In this document: piece after piece, positions 5,851 through 44,281 of the stretch
Layout: every line of letters begins with the position of its first letter
Position numbering within the stretch: the first letter of the stretch is position 1
From: Escherichia coli
Lineage (GTDB): Bacteria; Pseudomonadota; Gammaproteobacteria; Enterobacterales; Enterobacteriaceae
Assembly: GCF_030384885.1 (NCBI RefSeq)
Contig: NZ_CP128613.1
Length of the DNA: 64,000 bases
Strand: one strand, 5' to 3'
Made by a program: the position numbers and the translations under genes
The notes under the pieces: generated by a model
The model's input: only the letters and a program-made list of their open reading frames with translations
The model's database searches: none
Told to the model about the DNA's origin: nothing

Positions 5851-7203
5851 TCATAACCGAGAGAAATCATTGAAAAGTGCAAGCCCCATTAACAGCACCA
5901 GCAAAATCGAGCCAATGCGATAACAAAAGTCTTGAACCCGCTCGGATACCGGTCCGCCCTTGATCTTTTCGATCGCAAGGAACAGCAGATGCCCCCCGTC
6001 AAGTACGGGCAACGGAAACAGGTTAATTATCCCTAAGTTCACGCTAATGAGCGCAAGAAACGGCAGGTAATAAACAACCCCGAGTTCCGCTGTCATCCCA
6101 GCCCCCTTGGCGATAGAGATCGGCCCACTGAGGTTGTTCAGTTTCACATCACCGGTGATCAATTTTCCCAGCATACTGACCGTCAGCTTCATCAGCTGCC
6201 ACGTTTTGTCCGTGGCTTCGACGATAGCGTTGAACGGCCCATACTGGCGTACAACTTTATACTCATCTGGCAAAGGAATGACTTTCGGCTCAATACCGAC
6301 AAAACCAATCGCTTTACCATTACCCGGTTTACTCTCCGGGATTAATGTCAAAGACAAGGGACTCCCCTGTCTTTCGATTTCTAACGCTAAGGATTTACCC
6401 GGGTTATCCCGGACAAGCATCACAAAGGTCACCCACTGCGTTAAGGGCTGACCATCGACTTTAACGATCCTGTCGCCTGCTTGCAAACCTGCCTTACTTG
6501 CGGCCGAGTTTGGCTGCACATTTTCCAGTACAGGTTCAATTTGCGGGCCACGAGGACGAATCCCCAGCGAAGATACCGGATCTTCTTTATCAGGCTCAAA
6601 CGCCCAGTGACGTAAATCGAGCTTTACATCCCGTCGTTGGTCGCTGCCAAATGGCGCTACCGTAATGGTGGTGCTTTCATCGCCAATTTTATCGACCAAC
6701 TGCAAACGCACGGCATCCCAATCAGGCGTTTCGATACCATCTACGGCTTTTAGTTCCGTACCTGGTGCAATTTGTGCTTCCGCAGCTATCGAATTGGCTG
6801 CTATTTCGCCAACCACCGGACGTACGCCAGGTACACCAATAATAAAAACCAGCCAGTAGGCAAAGATAGCAAAAATGAAGTTTGCAACCGGACCTGCGGC
6901 AATAATCGCCGCACGTTGGCCGACAGATTTATTATTGAAGGCATGGTGGCGGAGTTCCGGAACAACCGGTTCTGCGCGCTCATCCAGCATTTTGACATAA
7001 CCGCCCAACGGGATCAGGGCGATGACATATTCGGTGCCTAGCTTATCAGTTCGGCGCCAGAGCGCCTTGCCAAAACCTATTGAGAAACGCTCAACGCGAA
7101 CACCACAACGCCGGGCAACCCAGAAATGACCAAATTCATGCACGGTGATAAGTACACCCAGTGCAACGATGAACGAAGCCAAATCCCAGAGAAAACTCAG
7201 CAT
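5851..7203 (-). CDS. rseP: Regulator of sigma-E protease RseP (site-2 protease)
   Basis: Track ORF 5851..7248; HEFGHF zinc-metalloprotease motif, PDZ regions; start moved to internal Met ([26 protein letters not shown]) to give the 450-aa protein I recall. Confidence 0.9.
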
Positions 7204-33985: not shown

Positions 33986-36229
33986 TTAGAAACGGAAGGT
34001 TGCGGTTGCAACGACCTGACGTTCTGCGCCCCAGAAGCAGCCATAGGTGTTAAAGCAGCTGGCGACGTATTCACGATCGAACAGGTTGTTAACATGCAGC
34101 GCCACGTTGGAGCCCGCCATGCCGACTCGCGCCAGATCATAACGCACTAACGCATCCACGACCGTATAACTTCCCACTTTAAAGGAGTTAGCCGGATCAC
34201 CATAGCTGGAGCCAGTATAACGACCACCGGTGCCCAGCGTCAGACCTGAAAGCGGACCGTCAAAGAAGGTATAGTCAGCCCACAGCGAAGCCATGTGTTT
34301 TGGCAGCTGTGCAGGCGTATTGCCTTTATAGGTAGTGTCGGTGGTGTATTCCGCATCGGTGTAAGTATAAGAACCTACTACGTTAACACTCGCCGACAGC
34401 GCCGCTTTCGCTTCGATTTCTACGCCACGAGCGCGGATCTCGCCACCTTCAACCGAGAAGAAGGAACCCTCAGGGTCCGCCATCAGGTTGTTGGTTTTAG
34501 TGAGATTATACACAGCACCAGTAACCACAATTGGGCGATCTTCCGGTACATATTTCACGCCGACCTCATACTGCTTACCTTTAGACGGCGCAAAAATATT
34601 ACCATCCTTCCCAACTTGTGAAGAAGGTTCAAACGATTCGCTATAGCTGAAGTAAGGTGTTACACCATTATCAAACAGGTAGTTAACACCACCACGCCAG
34701 GTAAACTGTTTGTCATCACGTTTATCGGTCGTCCCTTCAACGCGGTTATGAGACTCTTGATCCGCCCAGTCATAACGACCGCCCAGGGTGACCAGCACTT
34801 TATCCCACTGCGCCTGATCCTGAACATAAACACCCGTTTGTTTCTGCTTATTCAAAATGCGGTAAGGACCGGAGTTTGCCGGATCTTTCGCATTGAAGTC
34901 GAAATCGGTATTCACCGGATTGTACAGATCGAGCAGCGGTACGGAGTCGTCGTAACCAAACCAGGCGTTGATGTCATTACGCATACGCATAAAGTCGACA
35001 CCGGTCAGCAGAGTGTGGTCGATATCGCCAGTGGCAAACTTGCTCTGCAACTGGGTATCAACGGAGAAGTTTTGCAGCTTCTCATCATCAACGACGTATT
35101 TACGTGCCAGGTAGTGACCTTTATCGGCTGGCGCTAAAGCGGCACACTGTTTGCTGTAAGCATTCGCCGGATCGGAGCAGACGCCGTAACCATAAACGCT
35201 GTTTTGCGAGGTTTTGTTTTCAGCAAAGCGCAGGTTCTGACGCACAGTAAAGGTGTCGTTAAATTCGTGATCGAAGCTGTAGCCCACCATCTTCTCATTA
35301 CGAGAATAGGTGTTGTTCTTCGCCCCTTCGTTAAAATCTGTCGGCAGACGCTTACCGTTCGGCAGCGGCTCAACGGTTCCCTCTTTCGGCAGCCAGCCGT
35401 AATAACCGGTTTCCGGCTCGTTCTGGAAGTAAGAAAGGAAGGTGAAATTGGTTTTATCATCCGGACGCCAGGTAAACGCTGGCGCAATGGCATAACGCTG
35501 CTCTTCCGCGCCCTTTTGCTGGGCATTGGCAGAGCGCGCCAGTCCGGTCAGACGATAAGAGTAAACGCCATCATCATCCAGCGCATCGCTAAAGTCGAAA
35601 CCGGTCTGGAACAGGCTGTCTGTGCCCGCTTTAAATTGGATTTCTTTCAGCGGTTCGGTGGTTGGGCGCTTGCTGACCATATTTAACAGGCCGCCAGGGC
35701 TACTTTTACCGTAAAGAACAGAAACAGGGCCACGCATAATTTCAGCGCGTTCCAGCATATACGGGTCAATAACTGCATCGTTATAGAAGTTGCCTTGCAA
35801 CTTCAGACCGTTGAGATAGTTATTCTGGCTTTGGCCTTCTGCTGCAAAACCACGAATAATCAAATGATCATAAGTGTTTGATGCACCACGCGTACCGACC
35901 GAAACGCCTGGCGTATAGCTAAGCGCTTCTTTTACTGACTTAGGCTGATGCAGCGCCATTTCTTCGGCGGTCACAACAGAAATTGACTGCGGCACTTTTT
36001 GAATCGGTGTATCGGTTTTGGTGCCGGTAGCGGACTGTCGCGCCGCAATAGTTGCAGCTGGCCCCCATGCGCTTTCTTGCGGCGCTGGTGCAGCGGTAAC
36101 GGTGATAGTGTCTTCTTTCGGTTCAACCGCTGCCTGTGCGTAAACAGACATGCCGCTAACCGCTGTGGCTACTACAACTGCAATTTTACGCAGTGAGTGT
36201 TTTGGCTGAGCAGTTTTGGAACGCGCCAT
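33986..36229 (-). CDS. fhuA: TonB-dependent ferrichrome outer membrane receptor FhuA
   Basis: Track ORF 33986..36355; start placed at MARSKTAQPKHSLRKIAVVVATAVSGMSVYAQA (747 aa); C-terminal ...ATATFRF beta-barrel terminus. Confidence 0.95.
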   Translation of the reverse strand: MARSKTAQPKHSLRKIAVVVATAVSGMSVYAQAAVEPKEDTITVTAAPAPQESAWGPAATIAARQSATGTKTDTPIQKVPQSISVVTAEEMALHQPKSVKEALSYTPGVSVGTRGASNTYDHLIIRGFAAEGQSQNNYLNGLKLQGNFYNDAVIDPYMLERAEIMRGPVSVLYGKSSPGGLLNMVSKRPTTEPLKEIQFKAGTDSLFQTGFDFSDALDDDGVYSYRLTGLARSANAQQKGAEEQRYAIAPAFTWRPDDKTNFTFLSYFQNEPETGYYGWLPKEGTVEPLPNGKRLPTDFNEGAKNNTYSRNEKMVGYSFDHEFNDTFTVRQNLRFAENKTSQNSVYGYGVCSDPANAYSKQCAALAPADKGHYLARKYVVDDEKLQNFSVDTQLQSKFATGDIDHTLLTGVDFMRMRNDINAWFGYDDSVPLLDLYNPVNTDFDFNAKDPANSGPYRILNKQKQTGVYVQDQAQWDKVLVTLGGRYDWADQESHNRVEGTTDKRDDKQFTWRGGVNYLFDNGVTPYFSYSESFEPSSQVGKDGNIFAPSKGKQYEVGVKYVPEDRPIVVTGAVYNLTKTNNLMADPEGSFFSVEGGEIRARGVEIEAKAALSASVNVVGSYTYTDAEYTTDTTYKGNTPAQLPKHMASLWADYTFFDGPLSGLTLGTGGRYTGSSYGDPANSFKVGSYTVVDALVRYDLARVGMAGSNVALHVNNLFDREYVASCFNTYGCFWGAERQVVATATFRF

Positions 36230-36249
36230 TGGTATATCTCTGATGTAAA

Positions 36250-36300
36250 GTGAATGATAACGTAAACGAGAATGATTATTATAAAGATGAGATAATATTC
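36250..36300 (-). promoter_or_regulatory. Fur box / fhuA promoter region
   Basis: GAATGATAACGTAAACGAGAATGATTATTAT and GATAATATTC resemble the GATAATGATAATCATTATC Fur consensus, immediately upstream of the fhuA start. Confidence 0.5.
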
Positions 36301-36371
36301 GAAACGCTACGGCGATAGCAAGTAGCATCCCCTTCAGTTCAATATAAAAGTTCAAGAATCAACCAGAGGAA

Positions 36372-36419
36372 TCAAAAAATGTTAATGATTGCACTGCAAA
36401 GTAAAACCACATTAACATT
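36372..36419 (-). terminator. Terminator-like hairpin between the accessory adhesin gene and fhuA
   Basis: AATGTTAATG ... CATTAACATT 10-bp inverted repeat (22-nt loop) followed on the minus strand by a TTTTTT run; AT-rich stem so predicted stability is modest. Confidence 0.45.
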
Positions 36420-36443
36420 TATGAAATAGGAGTCAGGGAAAGC

Positions 36444-37454
36444 TTATCGATAATACACTTCAAAGGTGGCGACAGAATTAACCAGACCACTTTTTACATT
36501 ACCCGTTTTGATATAACGCGCCTTTAATGGGATGTTAACATTTTGATTTAAAGTGGTTTTTTCGATAACAGTATACTCTGTATCAAATGCTATAACATTG
36601 TTATTACTGTCCAGGATCTGCAGGCCAACACCTTCCGCCATCCCCGATCCAGACTCAATATTGAGAATATTATTACTCGTTATCCCCGTGGATCCTGCGG
36701 AGGTGAAACGGTAATCAACCTTTACATCCTGGGAACAATTTTCAATATGAATTGAAAACCTATCATCAGAAACTACAGGTGACACATTGTTAACATCAAA
36801 ATCATCTGTTCCGATATCATCGAGTGGAACGGTAATATTCTTGTTAATAAGATCACATGTCCCTGGTATAATATTTACCGGCACAGAAATAAAACGAAGC
36901 TGTCCTATAACAAGATTGTCATACTTCCAGTCAGCAACTAATTTACTGGTGTCAATGACTCCATTACCGACAGGCCCTGTCACAACAAACTGAATAGCTG
37001 CATGTATTTTTATCGGATAAACATATCCTCTATTCACTATTGACGAGCCTTTATGCCATGGTGTTATTAAATAACCTGAGGTGAGTTGCGCATTAACGTT
37101 ATTCGCCCATGCAGCACGAAAACCAATCCCTGGAACATTCGTCTGAAACACATCATGAAGGGGGTTATCGGTACGCAAATCGCTATTTGTCAAGACGGTA
37201 AACCCTTGCCAAATGTCACCATTCGCCGAGCAGGAAACTGAAATTGAATTACTAGTAGCTTCGAGTGTGGTAATAATCGTTCCCGGCTCTGCATCGTTAT
37301 TAACATCTAACGCTGGAACTGAGAATTCTATTTTTGCCGGATTTCCCCCATTTCCCGAAATGCTGCAACCGGCGAAAGCCTCAGGAATGGCAACTAAGGC
37401 AAGAAATATTATAGTCAGTAATATTTTTACATAAGAGAAAAATCCTGGCTTCAT
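36444..37454 (-). CDS. Fimbrial tip adhesin (two-domain: N-terminal receptor-binding domain plus C-terminal pilin domain) of accessory chaperone-usher operon
   Basis: Track ORF 336 aa; signal peptide MKPGFFSYVKILLTIIFLALVAIPEAFA; C-terminal pilin-like region with Cys pair and terminal ...SVATFEVYYR beta-strand; last gene after the usher. Confidence 0.75.
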   Translation of the reverse strand: MKPGFFSYVKILLTIIFLALVAIPEAFAGCSISGNGGNPAKIEFSVPALDVNNDAEPGTIITTLEATSNSISVSCSANGDIWQGFTVLTNSDLRTDNPLHDVFQTNVPGIGFRAAWANNVNAQLTSGYLITPWHKGSSIVNRGYVYPIKIHAAIQFVVTGPVGNGVIDTSKLVADWKYDNLVIGQLRFISVPVNIIPGTCDLINKNITVPLDDIGTDDFDVNNVSPVVSDDRFSIHIENCSQDVKVDYRFTSAGSTGITSNNILNIESGSGMAEGVGLQILDSNNNVIAFDTEYTVIEKTTLNQNVNIPLKARYIKTGNVKSGLVNSVATFEVYYR

Positions 37455-37475
37455 TATTCATTCATGTCCTGTTTG

Positions 37476-39950
37476 TTATCGGCACTCTATTGTGGCCTTA
37501 TAGATACCTTTGGTATATGTTTCTGGCACAGCTATAATCCCTGTACATTGCTGATTGTTCTCTTTTCCCCACTGTACCGTAAATGACATGGCATTTTGCA
37601 CACCAGTAATATAAACCTCACCATCCTCACCGACAATTGATGTACTATCCCCTAATGTCAGCAATGATCCAAAGGGTACGTATTCTTTATCGTGGAGCAA
37701 TGTCAATAATGCTCTCATACCATTACGTGCTTTAAAATTGACACCAACGACGGCACCTTTCGAAGGAATAACATCTTGTGTTGCATCAACGATATCAAGA
37801 TTATCGTGCCCCTGAGTATTTACCGTAATGGTGTTATGTCGATAATTTGTCATATTAGGAATAATCGCGTTCCCCCAATAATCAGTATAAACTCCCTGCG
37901 CATTTTGTACTTTTACATTAGCACCATCATCAATATGCACAATCGCGAATGAATCCTGTACTGATTGCCCTAATGTTACTCCATGAGTATGCGCAACCAC
38001 CGCACCTTGTGCGCTATAATTCCATTGTCGACTATTTTTATCATAGTTATATCCCAGACCAAACTCGCCTACTGAACTACGATAACGTCCATTTATACTG
38101 GCACCATAACCCACGTTATTATCGGCATAAGTTTGTTGTAAATTATAGCTAAGGTTATTATCTTGCAGAGCAGTTCCAGCAATACCCATTTGATGAGAGG
38201 TATTACCTTTGTCTGAACGATTTGCATTATACGTCGCCCATGCCCCCGGCAACCAGCGAGACAGAGGAATATTGATTGACAATGAAAATTGCTGCTCACC
38301 AGCCATTCCAGGCATATCTGTCAGTGCGTAATTAACAGACCAGCTAATATCACTCCAGCTAGTACTATAACCCATTCCTATGCTGCGTTCGGATCCTTGC
38401 ATTCCCCAATAATCTTGTTGATAACCATTAAGATAGATCGATCCCCAACGACCTATATTTTGCGAAAGATTAATTTGCAAATGGTTACGTCTATTATTGG
38501 TCTGGCGATAACTATAAATACTCTTATCATCAGGAATATCACGTTGATCAAGTGCCTCCTGAAAAGTATAAAATTGCGATGTTGAATAACGATAGCTTGC
38601 CAGATTTAATGTCGTATCAGTATCTGGAAAATCTTTCGAATACATTGCACGCCATGACAGTCCAGTTGCATCATTGTGTTCTTCAAGTTTCGTATTTGCT
38701 GCTGTGATATCAATAGAAACCGATCCCAGGCGGCCTAAGTCAGCACCAATTCCGGTCACACCAGAACGGTACATGGAGGCTCCAAGTATGCCACCATAAA
38801 TCGTTATTCCATAAGGCAAACCATATATCGCTGTTGCAACCCCAAAAACAGGTTGCTCTGATTTATTATCACTGTCACGATATTTTCCAGCAGCAACACT
38901 ATATTTTAATGCGTTTTCTCGCTGTAGGATTGGAACCGCTGAACTAGCCTGAATAAAGCTGTGTTCTTGTCCATTTGTTTCCTTGATGGTAACGTCCAGA
39001 TCGGCCCCTGCCGTTACCTGGTTTAAGTCTTTAATTTCAAATGGCCCTGCTGATACCCATGTTTGGTAAATGACATAGCCATTCTGTTTAATCACAACTT
39101 GTGCGTCGCTATTTGCAATACCACGTACTACAGGCGCAAAGCCTTGTTCACTCTCAGGCAACATACTGGTATCAGTTTCAAGTTTTATACCTGTCATTTG
39201 CACACTATCAAAAAGTTCACCATTCGTGAAAGTTTGCCCGACTTCCATCTGGCTACGTAATATTTTGATATCACGTTGCAAACTGGTGCTAATCGAATCC
39301 CAATTGGAGCCACTATAAACAGTATTATTACGTAACCGCCATACACCTAAATTCACACCTGAGTTTAAATTCAACCAATTTGAGTTCAGGTTATCACCAT
39401 CACTATTTTGTTGAGAACCACTGACATAATAACTTAACCAGGCAGCACTATCGCCATCATTCCAGTATTTTGGTGAAATACTCCCTATGGCTCTTGAATT
39501 CTGATAAATTTGAGGAATTTGCAGCCGCAGTGTTTGACTATCTAGCTGGAAGTCATAACGTGCGCCATCAATAATCTGTGAAATATCGCCAACCTCAGCG
39601 TCATCATCCATTACTTGTAACGCAGGAATGGCACCCACGTTAAGTCCTAGCTCACCGAGATCTGCCTTTGTAAAACGAGGGATAAGTTTTTTTTTGTCTG
39701 AAGAAAGAATGAACGTAATGTTTCTCTTATCAAGATATTCTTGCCCCCACATTACAGAGGTAAGATAGACACCTGGCGTTAGATTGTTATTATTAATAAA
39801 CTCTTCCAGCACTTTTGTATTTTCAAGCGGACTATCCAACTCCAGGATACGTAAGTTAAATTCATCTCGTGCATAGCTCAATGAATACACTGTAGATAGC
39901 GCAAGCGCTACTCCAGTTAAAACAAATGTACAATGCAGTGGTAGCGGCAT
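37476..39950 (-). CDS. Fimbrial usher (outer membrane assembly platform) of accessory operon
   Basis: Track ORF 824 aa; size and composition typical of FimD/PapC-family ushers; positioned between chaperone and adhesin. Confidence 0.85.
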   Translation of the reverse strand: MPLPLHCTFVLTGVALALSTVYSLSYARDEFNLRILELDSPLENTKVLEEFINNNNLTPGVYLTSVMWGQEYLDKRNITFILSSDKKKLIPRFTKADLGELGLNVGAIPALQVMDDDAEVGDISQIIDGARYDFQLDSQTLRLQIPQIYQNSRAIGSISPKYWNDGDSAAWLSYYVSGSQQNSDGDNLNSNWLNLNSGVNLGVWRLRNNTVYSGSNWDSISTSLQRDIKILRSQMEVGQTFTNGELFDSVQMTGIKLETDTSMLPESEQGFAPVVRGIANSDAQVVIKQNGYVIYQTWVSAGPFEIKDLNQVTAGADLDVTIKETNGQEHSFIQASSAVPILQRENALKYSVAAGKYRDSDNKSEQPVFGVATAIYGLPYGITIYGGILGASMYRSGVTGIGADLGRLGSVSIDITAANTKLEEHNDATGLSWRAMYSKDFPDTDTTLNLASYRYSTSQFYTFQEALDQRDIPDDKSIYSYRQTNNRRNHLQINLSQNIGRWGSIYLNGYQQDYWGMQGSERSIGMGYSTSWSDISWSVNYALTDMPGMAGEQQFSLSINIPLSRWLPGAWATYNANRSDKGNTSHQMGIAGTALQDNNLSYNLQQTYADNNVGYGASINGRYRSSVGEFGLGYNYDKNSRQWNYSAQGAVVAHTHGVTLGQSVQDSFAIVHIDDGANVKVQNAQGVYTDYWGNAIIPNMTNYRHNTITVNTQGHDNLDIVDATQDVIPSKGAVVGVNFKARNGMRALLTLLHDKEYVPFGSLLTLGDSTSIVGEDGEVYITGVQNAMSFTVQWGKENNQQCTGIIAVPETYTKGIYKATIECR

Positions 39951-39991
39951 AAATTCCTTTTCGCCCTGGTATGAAAATACAATTAAGCGGT

Positions 39992-40708
39992 TTATAGTTT
40001 TTGTTGACGTTTCCCTGAACTTGAACCATAGTCAGTTATCACCGACCACTCAACAACACTACCTGCTCCAGCAGGAAGACTAAACCGATTCTCAGAAAAT
40101 GGACCAACCATCATCGACAATGCACCAGGTTCAGATTTCTCCTCGACAGCAGTAATGCTCTTACCTGATACTGTTAGCTCATTAAATGAAATATAAAAAG
40201 GCGTTGGATTTTTTACTATGAGCCTCCCTGATTCTTTATGAAATTTAAGTTTTTCCCATGCAGTTAAAGCGTCGCTATTACTCAAAGAATCTGGTCGCCA
40301 AAATAACTTAAGCCGTACTTTCATTGCAAATTGCAAGGTGTTTTTATCTTTTAGCTCCTCCGGCATAGCAGAAATAGATTTTATATTTGCTAAAAACAAA
40401 CTTTCTCTATCTTGAGGAAGGCTTTCTTTATTTCCTGTAAATACAACATGGAGTAGTGTTTGACGGTTTTCCTCAAGTTTATAAACGGGAGGCGTGATGA
40501 GAAAAGGGGCTTTAGAACCATCAATATTACTCACCCAACTTTGCACGAGATAACGAGCATGTGCGTCTTTATTCTTTAATGTAATTTGAACTTCATTTTG
40601 ATTTGAAGGATAGACAATGCGTGTACCACCAAGTACAACACCTGCTTGTGCTTGTATTGCAGTGAGAAGAAATGTAAATCCTAAAAAGAATCGATAAGAT
40701 ACTGACAT
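39992..40708 (-). CDS. Periplasmic fimbrial chaperone (PapD/FimC family) of accessory operon
   Basis: Track ORF 238 aa; signal peptide; GGTRIVYP... N-terminal motif typical of PapD-like chaperones. Confidence 0.85.
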   Translation of the reverse strand: MSVSYRFFLGFTFLLTAIQAQAGVVLGGTRIVYPSNQNEVQITLKNKDAHARYLVQSWVSNIDGSKAPFLITPPVYKLEENRQTLLHVVFTGNKESLPQDRESLFLANIKSISAMPEELKDKNTLQFAMKVRLKLFWRPDSLSNSDALTAWEKLKFHKESGRLIVKNPTPFYISFNELTVSGKSITAVEEKSEPGALSMMVGPFSENRFSLPAGAGSVVEWSVITDYGSSSGKRQQKL

Positions 40709-40753
40709 AAATAACCCTCCATGGTCAGATAGTCCTTCAATACACTATAAATA

Positions 40754-41320
40754 TTACCGATAGAAGACTTCAAACGTCGCAGATGAAGCATATTTCCCCG
40801 CAGTTGGCGGGTTATTACCAATCTGGATGACATTAGCAGTATAATTAAATATCGTGGGATTTACATCGCCAGCATTATCAACATCAGTGGATTCATCAGG
40901 GACAGAACCATCAAATTTTACACTACTTGTTCCGCCATTTTTATTTGTTACCGTAATACCCACATTTGTTGCACTACCCGCAGCAGTTTCGCTATTTTCA
41001 AGGCGAAGAGAACCAGTATCCGTTGTGGTTCCAGAAAATGTCAGGTTTAGTTTTGTAACCAATGGATCACACTTTAGCAACTCAATCTTAAAATCTTTTG
41101 AAGTCCCAATCGTACCATCCCCGGTATAGTCCGCAGGGTAAGTATCTGCAAAAGTCACCGTGCCTGTCGTACTACTAGAATCATTGACATTGATTTCGCA
41201 GGTATCAGCAACAATTTTACCATTGAAGTTAACAATCCCAGTATCTACAGCAAATACACTCGTACTTACTGCTGCCAGGAAAGTTCCTGACGCAAATAGA
41301 GAAAGCAATTTTTTATTCAT
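40754..41320 (-). CDS. Major fimbrial subunit (pilin) of accessory operon
   Basis: Track ORF 188 aa; signal peptide MNKKLLSLFASGTFLAAVSTSVFA; conserved Cys pair (DTCEIN ... LLKCDP); C-terminal SATFEVFYR; first gene of operon. Confidence 0.8.
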   Translation of the reverse strand: MNKKLLSLFASGTFLAAVSTSVFAVDTGIVNFNGKIVADTCEINVNDSSSTTGTVTFADTYPADYTGDGTIGTSKDFKIELLKCDPLVTKLNLTFSGTTTDTGSLRLENSETAAGSATNVGITVTNKNGGTSSVKFDGSVPDESTDVDNAGDVNPTIFNYTANVIQIGNNPPTAGKYASSATFEVFYR

Positions 41321-41653
41321 AAAAATCCCTTAATTATGAGTCAATAAAGCATGATTCCATTCCAGAGAGGCTGGGCAGGACTTGATAAATATTGATAATA
41401 TAAATATATGCAAATAATAAAATTATTTTAGATTAGAGCAAAAAACACATTACATGTCTATACGACATATAATAAAAAGGTTACAACCATCTGAAATTTA
41501 AAGATTTGTTCTTATTCTCAAAAATATAAAATCATAAATTAAAAATATAAATTCACCCCATTAGATTCATTAAATAAATACTTATTATATTTATCTATAT
41601 AACGTCATAGTAATCTATTACGCTCTCCGCATCAGCGGAGAGCTATTACGATA
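41321..41653 (-). promoter_or_regulatory. AT-rich control region upstream of accessory fimbrial operon (promoter expected here), including a perfect stem-loop next to the mrcB stop
   Basis: 333-bp strongly AT-rich non-coding stretch with many A/T tracts; 10-bp inverted repeat CGCTCTCCGC-atca-GCGGAGAGCG near 41623..41646; no promoter elements could be assigned with confidence. Confidence 0.4.
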
Positions 41654-44188
41654 TTAATTACTACCAAACATATCCTTGATCCAACCTGCTACGCCGTCAC
41701 TGTCTTTCTGCTCTTGCTGATCAGGTTGCTGTTGCGGCTGTTGCTGCGGCTGAGAAGACTGATCAAACGGATTGCCTGACGGTTGCTGCTGCATCTCACT
41801 CTGCTGGCACAGCGATTGCGGATCGCTGGTCCAGACCGGTAAGACACGCATGCCACCGCTGCAGACAAAGTTGCCGTCGTAGTCCACGCCCATATCAGCA
41901 ATGTCTTCTGGCGGAACAAGATTCAGCGGTGTTGGCGTCTGGTTAGCCAGATAACGCTGATAAATCGACATTGCCCCACTGGCACCATACAGTTTGGTCG
42001 GCTGGTTGTTATCACGGCCTACCCAGGTGATGGTCACCGTGCTGCCGTCAATGCCCGCAAACCAGGTATCCACGTTGTTGTTGGTAGTCCCGGTTTTGCC
42101 CGCCAGATGCAGGTTCGGGTATTTCGCCCCAAGCTGACGACCCGTACCGCGTTGTACCACCTGCTGCATGGTCCATAGTGTCAGATACGCCGCCTGCGCC
42201 GGAACCGCGCGTTCCGCCTGCGGGAAGCTCTGATACAGCACCTTGCCATCTTCCGCAATTACCGAACGCAGCGCAGAAAGTGGTGCACGGTTACCGCCGC
42301 TGGCGATGGTCTGGAAAGCCTGCGCCACTTCGATTGGCGTTAAGTTCAACGCCCCCAGCAGCATTGCCGGAACCGGATGCAGCTGATCTTTCGGTACGCC
42401 CAGTTTAATCCAGGTATCCGTAACCGCAGGCAGCCCCAGCGCCATCCCCAGATTTACCGTCGGCACGTTCATCGAACGAGTCAACGCATCCACCAGCATC
42501 ACTCTGCCACTTTCGCTATAACGACGATCATCGTTCTGCGGTGACCAGACCTGACCGTTCGGCTGACGCAGCGCGATTGGCGCATCGGCAATCCACGTGT
42601 TCAGGCGATAGATTCTCGGCTGGCTTAAGGCCGTCAGATAAGTCGCTGGTTTTGCAAGGGAACCAATCGAACGACGCGCCTGCATCGCACGGTTGTAACC
42701 TGCAAACTGCGGCTCAGAACCACCAACCATCGCGCGAACTTCACCGCTAAAGCGGTCGACAACCACGATTGCCGTTTCCAGATCGCTCAGCTTTCGCTGT
42801 TTCTTCAGCGCCGGAATACCCTCCACGGCGGCTTTTTCTGCCGCGTCCTGGGCCACCGAGTCAAAGGTAGTGAAGATCTTCACGCCGGAGAGATCTTTCA
42901 CTTTATCGCCCAGTTTCGCCTGTAGCTCCTGACGCACCAGTTGCATAAAGGCTGGCTGTGGAGAGATTACCCCACCACGCGGCTGAACCCCCAGCGGACG
43001 CGCGCTGAGCATTTCATACAGTTCGCCGTCGATAATCTGTTGCTGTTGCAGCAGACGCAGTACCAGATTACGTCGCTCCAGCGCCAGTTTCGGGTTACGC
43101 CACGGATTGTAGATGGACGCCCCTTTCACCATACCCACCAACAGCGCCTGCTGGTCGAGGCTCAATTCTTCTACCGGGCGACCAAAGTAATACAAGCTCG
43201 CCAGCGGGAAGCCGCGGATTTCGTTGTCGCCGCTCTGACCGAGATACACCTCGTTCATATACAGCTCAAGAATACGGTCTTTGCTGTAACGCGCGTCCAT
43301 GATCAGCGCCATGTAGGCTTCGTTCGCTTTACGCCAGTAAGAACGCTCGCTGGAGAGGAACAGGTTTTTCACCAGCTGTTGCGTCAGCGTACTCGCCCCC
43401 TGCACCGTGCGTCCGGCGGTCAGGTTTGCCAACACCGCACGTCCGATGGAGTAGAGACTGATCCCATCATGCTCGTAAAAATGACGGTCTTCTGTTGCCA
43501 GCAAAGTATCCACCAGCAGATCCGGGAAACCACTGCGCGGCACAAACAGACGTTGCTCACCGTTTGGCGAAGAGATCATGGTGATCAGACGCGGATCAAG
43601 ACGGAAGAAACCAAACTGACGGTTGTTCTCCATATTGACGATCGTCGCCAGATGATCGCCATCAAAGGTCAGACGCGCACGCACCTGTCCTTCTTTGCTG
43701 TCCGGGAAATCAAACGGACGACGGATCATCTCAATGCTGTTGGCCTGCACGGTAAATTCGCCAGGGCGCGTCATTTTCGACACCTGACGATACTGGGTCG
43801 CCTCCAGCAGCTTCACCATCTCGTTTTTGCTGATGGTCATGTCTGGCTCAAGGTTGACCATTCGGCCATAAACAGCCGCAGGCAATTGCCAAACTTTGCC
43901 ATCAATACGGCTACGAATTTTTTGATCGAGATAAACACCGTAAATGGCGATCAGCACGGCAAAAACGATAGCCAGTTTTAGCAGCAGCCATAGCCAGCCG
44001 CGTTTGCCACGAGGCTTACGCCCTTTGCCTTTGCCCTTACCTTTGCGCGGCATCGGTTCTTCATCCTCATAGTCATCATAATCGTCGTAATCATCGTCAT
44101 CTTCGTAACGACGACGGCTTACCTTTTGTTTGACCGGACGCGTCGGTTTCCCTTTGCGTCCAATTGGCTCGCGGTCATTCCCGGCCAT
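41654..44188 (-). CDS. mrcB: Penicillin-binding protein 1B (bifunctional glycosyltransferase/transpeptidase)
   Basis: Track ORF 41654..44203; start placed at [22 protein letters not shown] (844 aa); acidic [15 protein letters not shown] tract. Confidence 0.95.
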
Positions 44189-44281
44189 GCTTTTTCTCCG
44201 CAATATTCAGGCGCAAAAGCCCGATTTTCTGTTCTTCTGTAACAAGACAGAAGAAGATATCTCTCAAATTTACTTTGGTCT

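Follow-up and report, generated by a model that had tools for sequence, protein, structure and literature searches.

The 64,000-nt stretch of the Escherichia coli contig NZ_CP128613.1 analyzed here (the window, whose coordinates are used throughout) carries an accessory fimbrial operon directly upstream of the iron-regulated fhuACDB operon, and this work deals with the spacer between them and with an AU-rich stem-loop at the end of the fimbrial operon. Direct reading of the sequence together with its list of open reading frames (ORFs) gives the gene order hrpB (46756-44282), mrcB, four fimbrial genes, fhuA, fhuC, fhuD and fhuB on the minus strand, with hemL convergent; the fimbrial genes, the hairpin and fhuA thus all lie on the minus strand. 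The mrcB gene (41654..44203, minus strand), which encodes PBP1b, is the conserved left flank of the fimbrial cassette and is identified from the ORF list and the RefSeq annotation of strain 2013C-4282. The window is 100% identical to this strain in the region, and the RefSeq gene order there is the same. On the other side, fhuA (33986..36229, minus strand) encodes the ferrichrome outer-membrane receptor and is the first gene of fhuACDB; it begins with the ATG at 36229-36227, its translation starts MARSKTAQP, and RefSeq annotates it likewise. The spacer from the stop codon of the last fimbrial gene (TAA, 36446-36444) to the fhuA ATG is 36443..36230, that is 214 nt, as had been stated in the original prediction. 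The same prediction placed an accessory fimbrial operon upstream of and co-directional with fhuACDB on the minus strand, and the ORF list, the Pfam domains and the RefSeq gene order agree with this.

All four fimbrial ORFs are intact, have the expected lengths and form one co-directional cluster according to the ORF list and Pfam. Each of them is read from the minus strand. The cluster starts with a ushA-like major fimbrial subunit of 188 aa (40754..41320; Pfam Fimbrial PF00419, E = 3.8e-20), whose product is named 'fimbrial protein' in the RefSeq annotation of the identical strain 2013C-4282. It is followed by a ushB-like periplasmic chaperone of 238 aa (39992..40708; PapD_N, 2.3e-33, and PapD_C, 2.4e-15), a ushC-like outer-membrane usher of 824 aa (37476..39950; PapC_N, Usher, 3.5e-179, and PapC_C) and a ushD-like two-domain tip adhesin of 336 aa (36444..37454; Fimbrial, 2.3e-15). 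The C-terminal pilin domain of the adhesin covers residues 194-335, and the solved FimA and FimF structures match the protein in this pilin half only; the N-terminal half gives a sub-threshold Pfam match to an MrkD-like receptor-binding domain. Judged by its gene content, the cluster at 36444-41320 is an intact chaperone-usher operon, which would produce a fimbria and bind a receptor. The G+C content of the operon is 39.9%, compared with 50% for the window.

A sporadic chromosomal chaperone-usher type was named ECSF_0165 in the accessible text of Wurpel et al. 2013 (PMC3559732). In that of a later study (Open Biol 2017, PMC5717340), the usher is called UshC and the operon ushA-ushB-ushC-ushD, assigned to the gamma* clade and reported from ST131 and from the enteropathogenic E. 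coli (EPEC) strain E2348/69. ECSF_0165 is a locus tag of strain SE15; the RefSeq table lists new-style tags only, and the tag was linked to the gene through the strain, the position and the operon structure. In SE15 the operon is placed exactly between mrcB and fhuA, and the window usher shares 86% protein identity with the SE15 usher at the same locus. The order of subunit, chaperone, usher and adhesin is shared with SE15, ST131 and E2348/69, and the mrcB-fhuA site with SE15 and E2348/69. These similarities identify the window operon as the published ushABCD or ECSF_0165 type and not as a new one. Its distribution is sporadic like that of the type: some 569 of 5426 complete E. coli genomes, or about 10%, have the operon, in each case as a single chromosomal copy between mrcB and fhuA, which fits its description as accessory. 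Three alleles were found in E. coli, namely a common one (564 genomes), that of E2348/69 and that of the window. The window differs from the type in its rare allele, which has about 84% DNA identity to the common one and was found in full in just two of the 5426 genomes, 2013C-4282 and 2017-02-2CC. At the junction, E2348/69 and the common allele share 83.6% identity.

The contexts of ten adhesin homologues, with identities from 69% down to 41%, were examined outside these alleles; they come from Kluyvera ascorbata, Salmonella enterica, three Citrobacter lineages, two Enterobacter lineages (including E. asburiae) and metagenome contigs. With the window adhesin itself, the homologues span 41-100% identity and occur in Escherichia, Kluyvera, Citrobacter, Salmonella and Enterobacter. 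All ten contexts sit between mrcB and fhuACDB and are co-directional with both, and the spacer before fhuA ranges from 204 to 222 nt over 12 ush-carrying junctions (homologue contexts and E. coli alleles). The cassette keeps the mrcB-fhuA site across at least five genera while the adhesin diverges to 41% identity. The comparison indicates that the ush-fhuA junction is ancient and kept across at least five genera, with an ordinary layout, and that the mrcB-fhuA interval is a fixed locus where the fimbrial cassette diversifies or gets lost, not a recent island beside fhuA. A simple recent insertion at 36308, where the megablast homology to K-12 ends, was considered and discarded, as sensitive alignments reach 36386 and the same locus is present in other genera. 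The picture of an adhesin cassette diversifying in place will not surprise specialists. Some of the loci differ in content: one (L013) has a second adhesin-like gene in the cassette (6106-7170), in two (L004 and L005) an ORF of 146 aa on the other strand separates mrcB from the subunit gene (L004 1399-1839), and one Salmonella locus has an IS4-type fragment in that same position (L008 711-1636).

An alignment of ten spacers, including that of ush-less K-12 with mrcB upstream, shows that the spacer is bipartite. The 5' part of about 60-85 nt is specific to the cassette or lineage, and the 3' part of about 155 nt is conserved in every aligned lineage, with ushD or mrcB alike as the upstream gene. 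This conserved fhuA control region (36230..36386, minus strand) runs from ..ATTAAC..CATCTGG.. to the ATG and has 74-95% identity to K-12, compared with 74-92% for the first 900 nt of fhuA coding DNA. The -10 hexamer TATAAT (36283-36278) is overlapped by a Fur box, CTTTATAATAATCATTCTC (36268..36286, minus strand), which shares 14 of 19 positions with the Fur consensus GATAATGATAATCATTATC and has the same sequence in K-12. The promoter, the Fur box and the leader all match K-12 and the promoter is intact, so the Fur-regulated fhuA promoter of the original prediction is indeed in place.

Footprints of Salmonella HypT, a LysR-type regulator, on the fhuA promoter were reported at TTACGTTATCATTCA (+7..+21) and AACCCTTCCTTTTCA (-111..-97) in a study that relied on the E. 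coli start site and -10/-35 boxes and found an effect of HypT on fhuA of only about twofold (PNAS 2019, PMC6397515). The numbering of the proximal site would place the fhuA transcription start of the window near 36271. A proximal HypT operator homologue, TTACGTTATCATTCA, lies at 36251..36265 as an exact match to the footprinted Salmonella sequence, and a degenerate distal homologue, AACATTTTTTGATTCC, at 36368..36383. The latter is a candidate binding site; it agrees at 9 of 15 positions with a 1-nt insertion and keeps the 102-nt spacing to the proximal site. The match is 10/15 in the common allele and 11/15 in E2348/69, and the aligned columns read AACCCTTTCTTTTCA in K-12 and in the ush-carrying Salmonella, Kluyvera and Citrobacter.

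The AU-rich stem-loop at the end of the fimbrial operon (36372..36424, minus strand) is a probable intrinsic terminator hairpin, on the grounds of folding and of its conservation among E. coli alleles. It begins 20 nt past the ushD stop codon on the same strand. Its arms are perfectly complementary over 10 nt, AAATGTTAAT (36420-36411) and ATTAACATTT (36386-36377), and three more outer pairs extend the stem to 36424-36372. Direct reading shows a run of six T residues, the putative U-tract, at 36374..36379 (minus strand); the first three of these are at the same time paired with the AAA at the base of the 5' arm. An AT-rich hairpin with a T-run and a weak stem had been predicted here at 36372..36419; the composition, the T6 run and the weakness were all recovered, and only the extent proved slightly larger, 36372-36424. 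Folded in a 60-nt context, the sequence reaches -12.6 kcal/mol (z = -2.9), which was equaled by 1 of 200 shuffles, and the 48 nt of exactly 36372-36419 reach -9.5 kcal/mol (z = -1.5), equaled by 19 of 200. Within the cassette-specific part of the spacer, the most stable single hairpin has -11.8 kcal/mol and 21 pairs, four of them G-C. A permissive Rfam scan of 35900-36800 yielded one chance snoRNA match (E = 0.15) and no known RNA family. A 19-codon ORF within the hairpin (ATG at 36417, MLMWFYFAVQSLTFFDSSG) was rejected as a gene; it is without a ribosome-binding site, and its reading frame, kept open in the common allele, is cut short to 11 codons in E2348/69.

The other two E. coli alleles fold more strongly than the window, with -17 kcal/mol (z = -2.7) in the common allele and -22.4 kcal/mol (z = -3.5) in E2348/69. 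An outer helix of 13 pairs is retained in four distinct E. coli sequences, with 98% of the alignment cells paired, and pairing falls to 34-52% when the partners are slid by 1-3 columns. Two pairs change from A-U to G-C on both sides, and one pair becomes G-U. The helix is kept despite a DNA difference of about 16% between alleles and a 13-nt indel in the loop. An A-run precedes the stem in all three alleles, and the U-run is T6 in the window, T5 in the common allele and T4-C in E2348/69. Since the hairpin is kept in three alleles with compensatory changes and with these energies, it looks like a selected barrier and not an accident; the compensatory evidence is supportive of maintenance by selection but does not prove it. 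A palindromic protein-binding site was also considered for the two arms. The arm-to-arm distance is 24 nt in the window allele and 37 nt in the other two, and because this spacing differs by 13 nt between alleles, a folded strand fits better than a fixed palindromic binding site, which is disfavored.

The hairpin straddles the boundary between the two parts of the spacer. Its 5' arm is cassette-specific, while the loop-proximal 3' part, the 3' arm (ATTAAC) and the T-run align with the conserved backbone, which reads ..ATTAACCCTTTCTTTTCATCTGG.. under the 3' side of the hairpin in K-12, Salmonella and Kluyvera. An arrangement of which we know no earlier description follows from the aligned sequences, namely that the hairpin 3' arm and U-run of ush carriers overlie and degrade the distal HypT operator homologue in E. 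coli.

A stable stem-loop is present in the cassette-specific spacer part of 11 of the 12 scored junctions. The K-12 mrcB-fhuA junction, with a spacer of 219 nt against 214 nt in the window, has in common with it a co-directional upstream gene, a stem-loop just past the stop codon and the same control region of about 155 nt, in which the -10, the Fur box and the leader are identical. It differs in the stem-loop, which is G+C-rich in K-12 (ACCGGATGGC..GCCATCCGGT, about -20 kcal/mol) and lacks a U-run, whereas the window hairpin is AU-rich and has T6, and in the distal HypT site, which is intact in K-12 (AACCCTTTCTTTTCA) and degenerate in the window. Junctions of S. enterica (L008) and Enterobacter (L012) share with the window the order mrcB-(four fimbrial genes)-fhuACDB, a spacer of 210-217 nt and a terminator-like element right past the adhesin stop. 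The Salmonella element is a textbook one, GCCTG..CAGGC followed by T4CT4, and that of one Enterobacter is GCCTGC..GCAGGC followed by T6. In both, the short G+C-rich stem and the U-run lie wholly in cassette-specific sequence and leave the conserved fhuA upstream region untouched; the E. coli hairpin, unlike these, borrows its 3' arm (ATTAAC) and U-run from the conserved region. A further junction (L013) has a G+C-rich stem followed by TTTCTT; the G+C-rich stems of Kluyvera, two Citrobacter lineages and E. asburiae lack a U-run.

We propose that two ordinary elements are joined in the spacer, the 3' end of the fimbrial cassette and the fhuA control region. The first ~70 nt (36443-36372) are the end of a ushABCD-type cassette and form a long AU-rich stem-loop closed by a U-run, which probably serves as a factor-independent terminator and 3'-end stabilizer of the ush operon. 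The remaining ~155 nt (36386-36230) comprise the distal HypT-site homologue, the -35 and -10 boxes with the Fur box over the -10, a start near 36271, the proximal HypT site and a leader of about 42 nt. By the published footprint numbering (PMC6397515), the T-run is about 100 nt from the fhuA start; fimbrial transcripts would mostly end at that distance upstream of the start site, and fhuACDB would be transcribed mainly from its own Fur-controlled promoter. We regard this reading as a whole, terminator together with own promoter, as moderately likely. The hairpin itself is probably a real intrinsic terminator, and a weak to moderate efficiency is expected because its base is AU-rich. The anatomy of the hairpin, its conservation and the compensatory changes can be read directly from the alleles; that it terminates transcription, and how efficiently, we infer from them.

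In comparison with intrinsic terminators that have flanking A- and U-tracts, the window hairpin shares the A-run, the stem-loop and the U-run just past the last stop of the operon. It has the U-rich tract, the position after the last gene on the transcribed strand and a structure kept in evolution, and it departs from the compact stem that is rich in G+C especially at the base. The window stem is unusually long, interrupted and AU-rich, fails a simple consensus filter and has a low predicted efficiency. Several points thus weigh against the terminator. Only 3-4 of 17-21 pairs are G-C, and the stem base beside the U-tract is A-U; an AU-rich stem and base predict poor efficiency of an intrinsic terminator. 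A consensus terminator scan of the window (simple stem, at least three G-C pairs, loop of 3-8 nt) does not list the hairpin at 36372-36424, and when the T6 runs of both strands of the window, 52 in all, are ranked by upstream folding energy, its own comes 17th. The covariation comes from four sequences, both compensatory changes are in the single allele of E2348/69, and 31 of 500 shuffles give equal counts. In half of the other genera the hairpin has no U-run, and a role as stabilizer or one linked to Rho is equally possible for these. On energy alone the hairpin is unremarkable; it stands above chance through its position and its conservation in three alleles with compensatory changes.

These weaknesses give room to the read-through of the original prediction. 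The stem would then be too weak to matter, and a sizeable share of ush transcripts would cross the fhuA promoter, so that fhuACDB would be raised independently of Fur or polymerases would dislodge Fur or collide. It draws on the AU-rich stem passed over by the consensus scan and on the rest of the spacer: the same scan found no second terminator-like site in 36372-36230, and the first 80 nt, with 16 C and 11 G, show no marked excess of C or shortage of G and hence no obvious site for the loading of Rho. The hairpin is, however, conserved with compensatory changes and stronger in the other two alleles. The arrangement, moreover, is kept in ten of ten contexts from at least five genera, hence any read-through must be tolerated or small. 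Strains without ush share the co-directional layout, with the constitutive housekeeping gene mrcB upstream and a hairpin without a U-run, and the cassette therefore adds no new kind of exposure; it even puts 5.4 kb and extra hairpins between mrcB and fhuA. The operon, at 39.9% G+C, is probably also poorly transcribed. Low-G+C DNA of such kind is usually kept quiet by xenogeneic silencers, and the same general point on silencing is made in the 2017 study of the ush operon (PMC5717340). We consider substantial read-through unlikely, and the coupling of fimbrial and ferrichrome-receptor expression, or the disturbance of Fur control, is unsupported and less special than was presented.

A different function of the same structure would be the protection of the mRNA 3' end, with termination further on by Rho or by chance, and with 3' exonucleases trimming the transcript back to a hairpin that sets its stability. 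Stable stem-loops without a U-run, the usual look of stabilizers, are indeed present in Kluyvera, two Citrobacter lineages and E. asburiae, and past mrcB in K-12 and the window. All three E. coli ush alleles nevertheless have a U-run (T6, T5 and T4) right after the stem and an A-run before it, which is the signature of intrinsic terminators, and Rho would have little untranslated RNA to act on before the fhuA promoter; protection without termination at the hairpin appears rather improbable for E. coli. The element might also matter at the level of DNA, where the 3' arm and T-run would be a remodeled distal HypT operator whose main effect is an altered hypochlorite (HypT) repression of fhuA, not read-through. 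The published distal footprint (PMC6397515) aligns exactly with 36383-36368, AACCCTTTCTTTTCA is kept in K-12 and in the ush-carrying Salmonella, Kluyvera and Citrobacter while the E. coli ush alleles retain 9-11 of 15 positions, and the 102-nt spacing to the proximal site is retained. Yet the footprint is that of Salmonella HypT on Salmonella DNA, and the use of the site in E. coli is by analogy; other genera vary at the site too (11-12/15 in L012 and L013), the twofold effect on fhuA is small, and the compensatory changes of the 5' arm are left unexplained. Such a role is highly improbable as the main explanation. A more novel idea is that the terminator was built by pairing the cassette end with the conserved fhuA upstream element ATTAACCCTTTCTTTTCA, which would have turned the distal HypT operator into a hairpin arm and U-run. 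HypT looping repression of fhuACDB under hypochlorite would then be lost or weakened in ush carriers (e.g. ST131 and E2348/69), and fhuA regulation changed through operator remodeling and not through read-through; we put this forward as a speculation that is very unlikely to be right in full. The composite of a weak to moderate terminator and an independent fhuA promoter thus stays the preferred reading.

The finding matters little in itself, as a known sporadic fimbrial operon sits at a fixed site beside a well-studied iron-regulated promoter with a plausible terminator between them. The operon and its location are already published, and the hairpin is an unannotated but ordinary terminator-like element. 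FhuA serves not only as a siderophore receptor but also as that of several phages and colicins. A measurable change of fhuA expression, through read-through or through the altered distal HypT site, would be of modest importance; clinically important lineages such as ST131 and EPEC E2348/69 carry the ush cassette. The 3' hairpin and the fhuA junction are not mentioned in the accessible text of the two ush studies (PMC3559732 and PMC5717340), whose subject is usher phylogeny and assembly. A literature search returned nothing on read-through from mrcB or ushD into fhuA, nor on a terminator there; a paper on a 'fhuA promoter' expression vector concerns Vibrio cholerae and is irrelevant here.

Several minor features were observed within the fhuA control region. 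The segment 36309-36360 of the window differs from K-12, the common allele and E2348/69 and resembles Salmonella, Kluyvera and Citrobacter (TTGCTAT, not TTGCGAA). This resemblance to other genera suggests that the window cassette was imported with about 130 nt of the upstream region and that the recombination ended near 36308, a short way upstream of the -35 region. Within this segment, at 36330-36350 and also upstream of the -35 region, lineages other than E. coli (L004, L006, L008 and L011-L014) conserve a stem CCCCT..(10 nt)..AGGGG; it reads CTTTT..AAGGG with two G-U pairs in the window and is absent from K-12, the common allele and E2348/69. A promoter-like sequence, TTGCTA-18 nt-TATTAT (36292-36321, minus strand), is located upstream of and overlapping the accepted fhuA promoter. 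Its CTTGC and TATTAT hardly vary among the ten lineages of the alignment (Kluyvera has TATCAT), a hint of a second promoter or of a binding site. Over its first 900 nt, the fhuA gene of E2348/69 (L015) is only 75% identical to that of K-12 (L002), yet the 157 nt upstream are 95% identical; the window fhuA shares 92% identity with K-12. For ST410, too, fhuA was reported to show strong allelic diversity within E. coli (PMC6715731).

Further minor features were found in the mrcB-ushA spacer. A G+C-rich hairpin without a T-run, GCTCTCCGC-TGAT-GCGGAGAGC (41622-41643, minus strand), lies directly past the mrcB stop in ush carriers; because it differs from the ACCGGATGGC..GCCATCCGGT hairpin of K-12, the left boundary of the cassette would be right at the mrcB stop. 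A Fur-box-like match of 14/19, GATAAATATAATAAGTATT (41595-41577), raised the idea of Fur control of the fimbrial promoter, which was dropped; the local G+C content is 26%, five sites in the window reach that score, and the match is probably due to chance. A second AU-rich hairpin, ATTATATGTC..GACATGTAAT followed by T6 (41443-41473, minus strand; -12.5 kcal/mol), is positioned about 125 nt upstream of the ushA start. It is not obviously kept in the common allele and may serve as the actual terminator of mrcB or in the regulation of ush.

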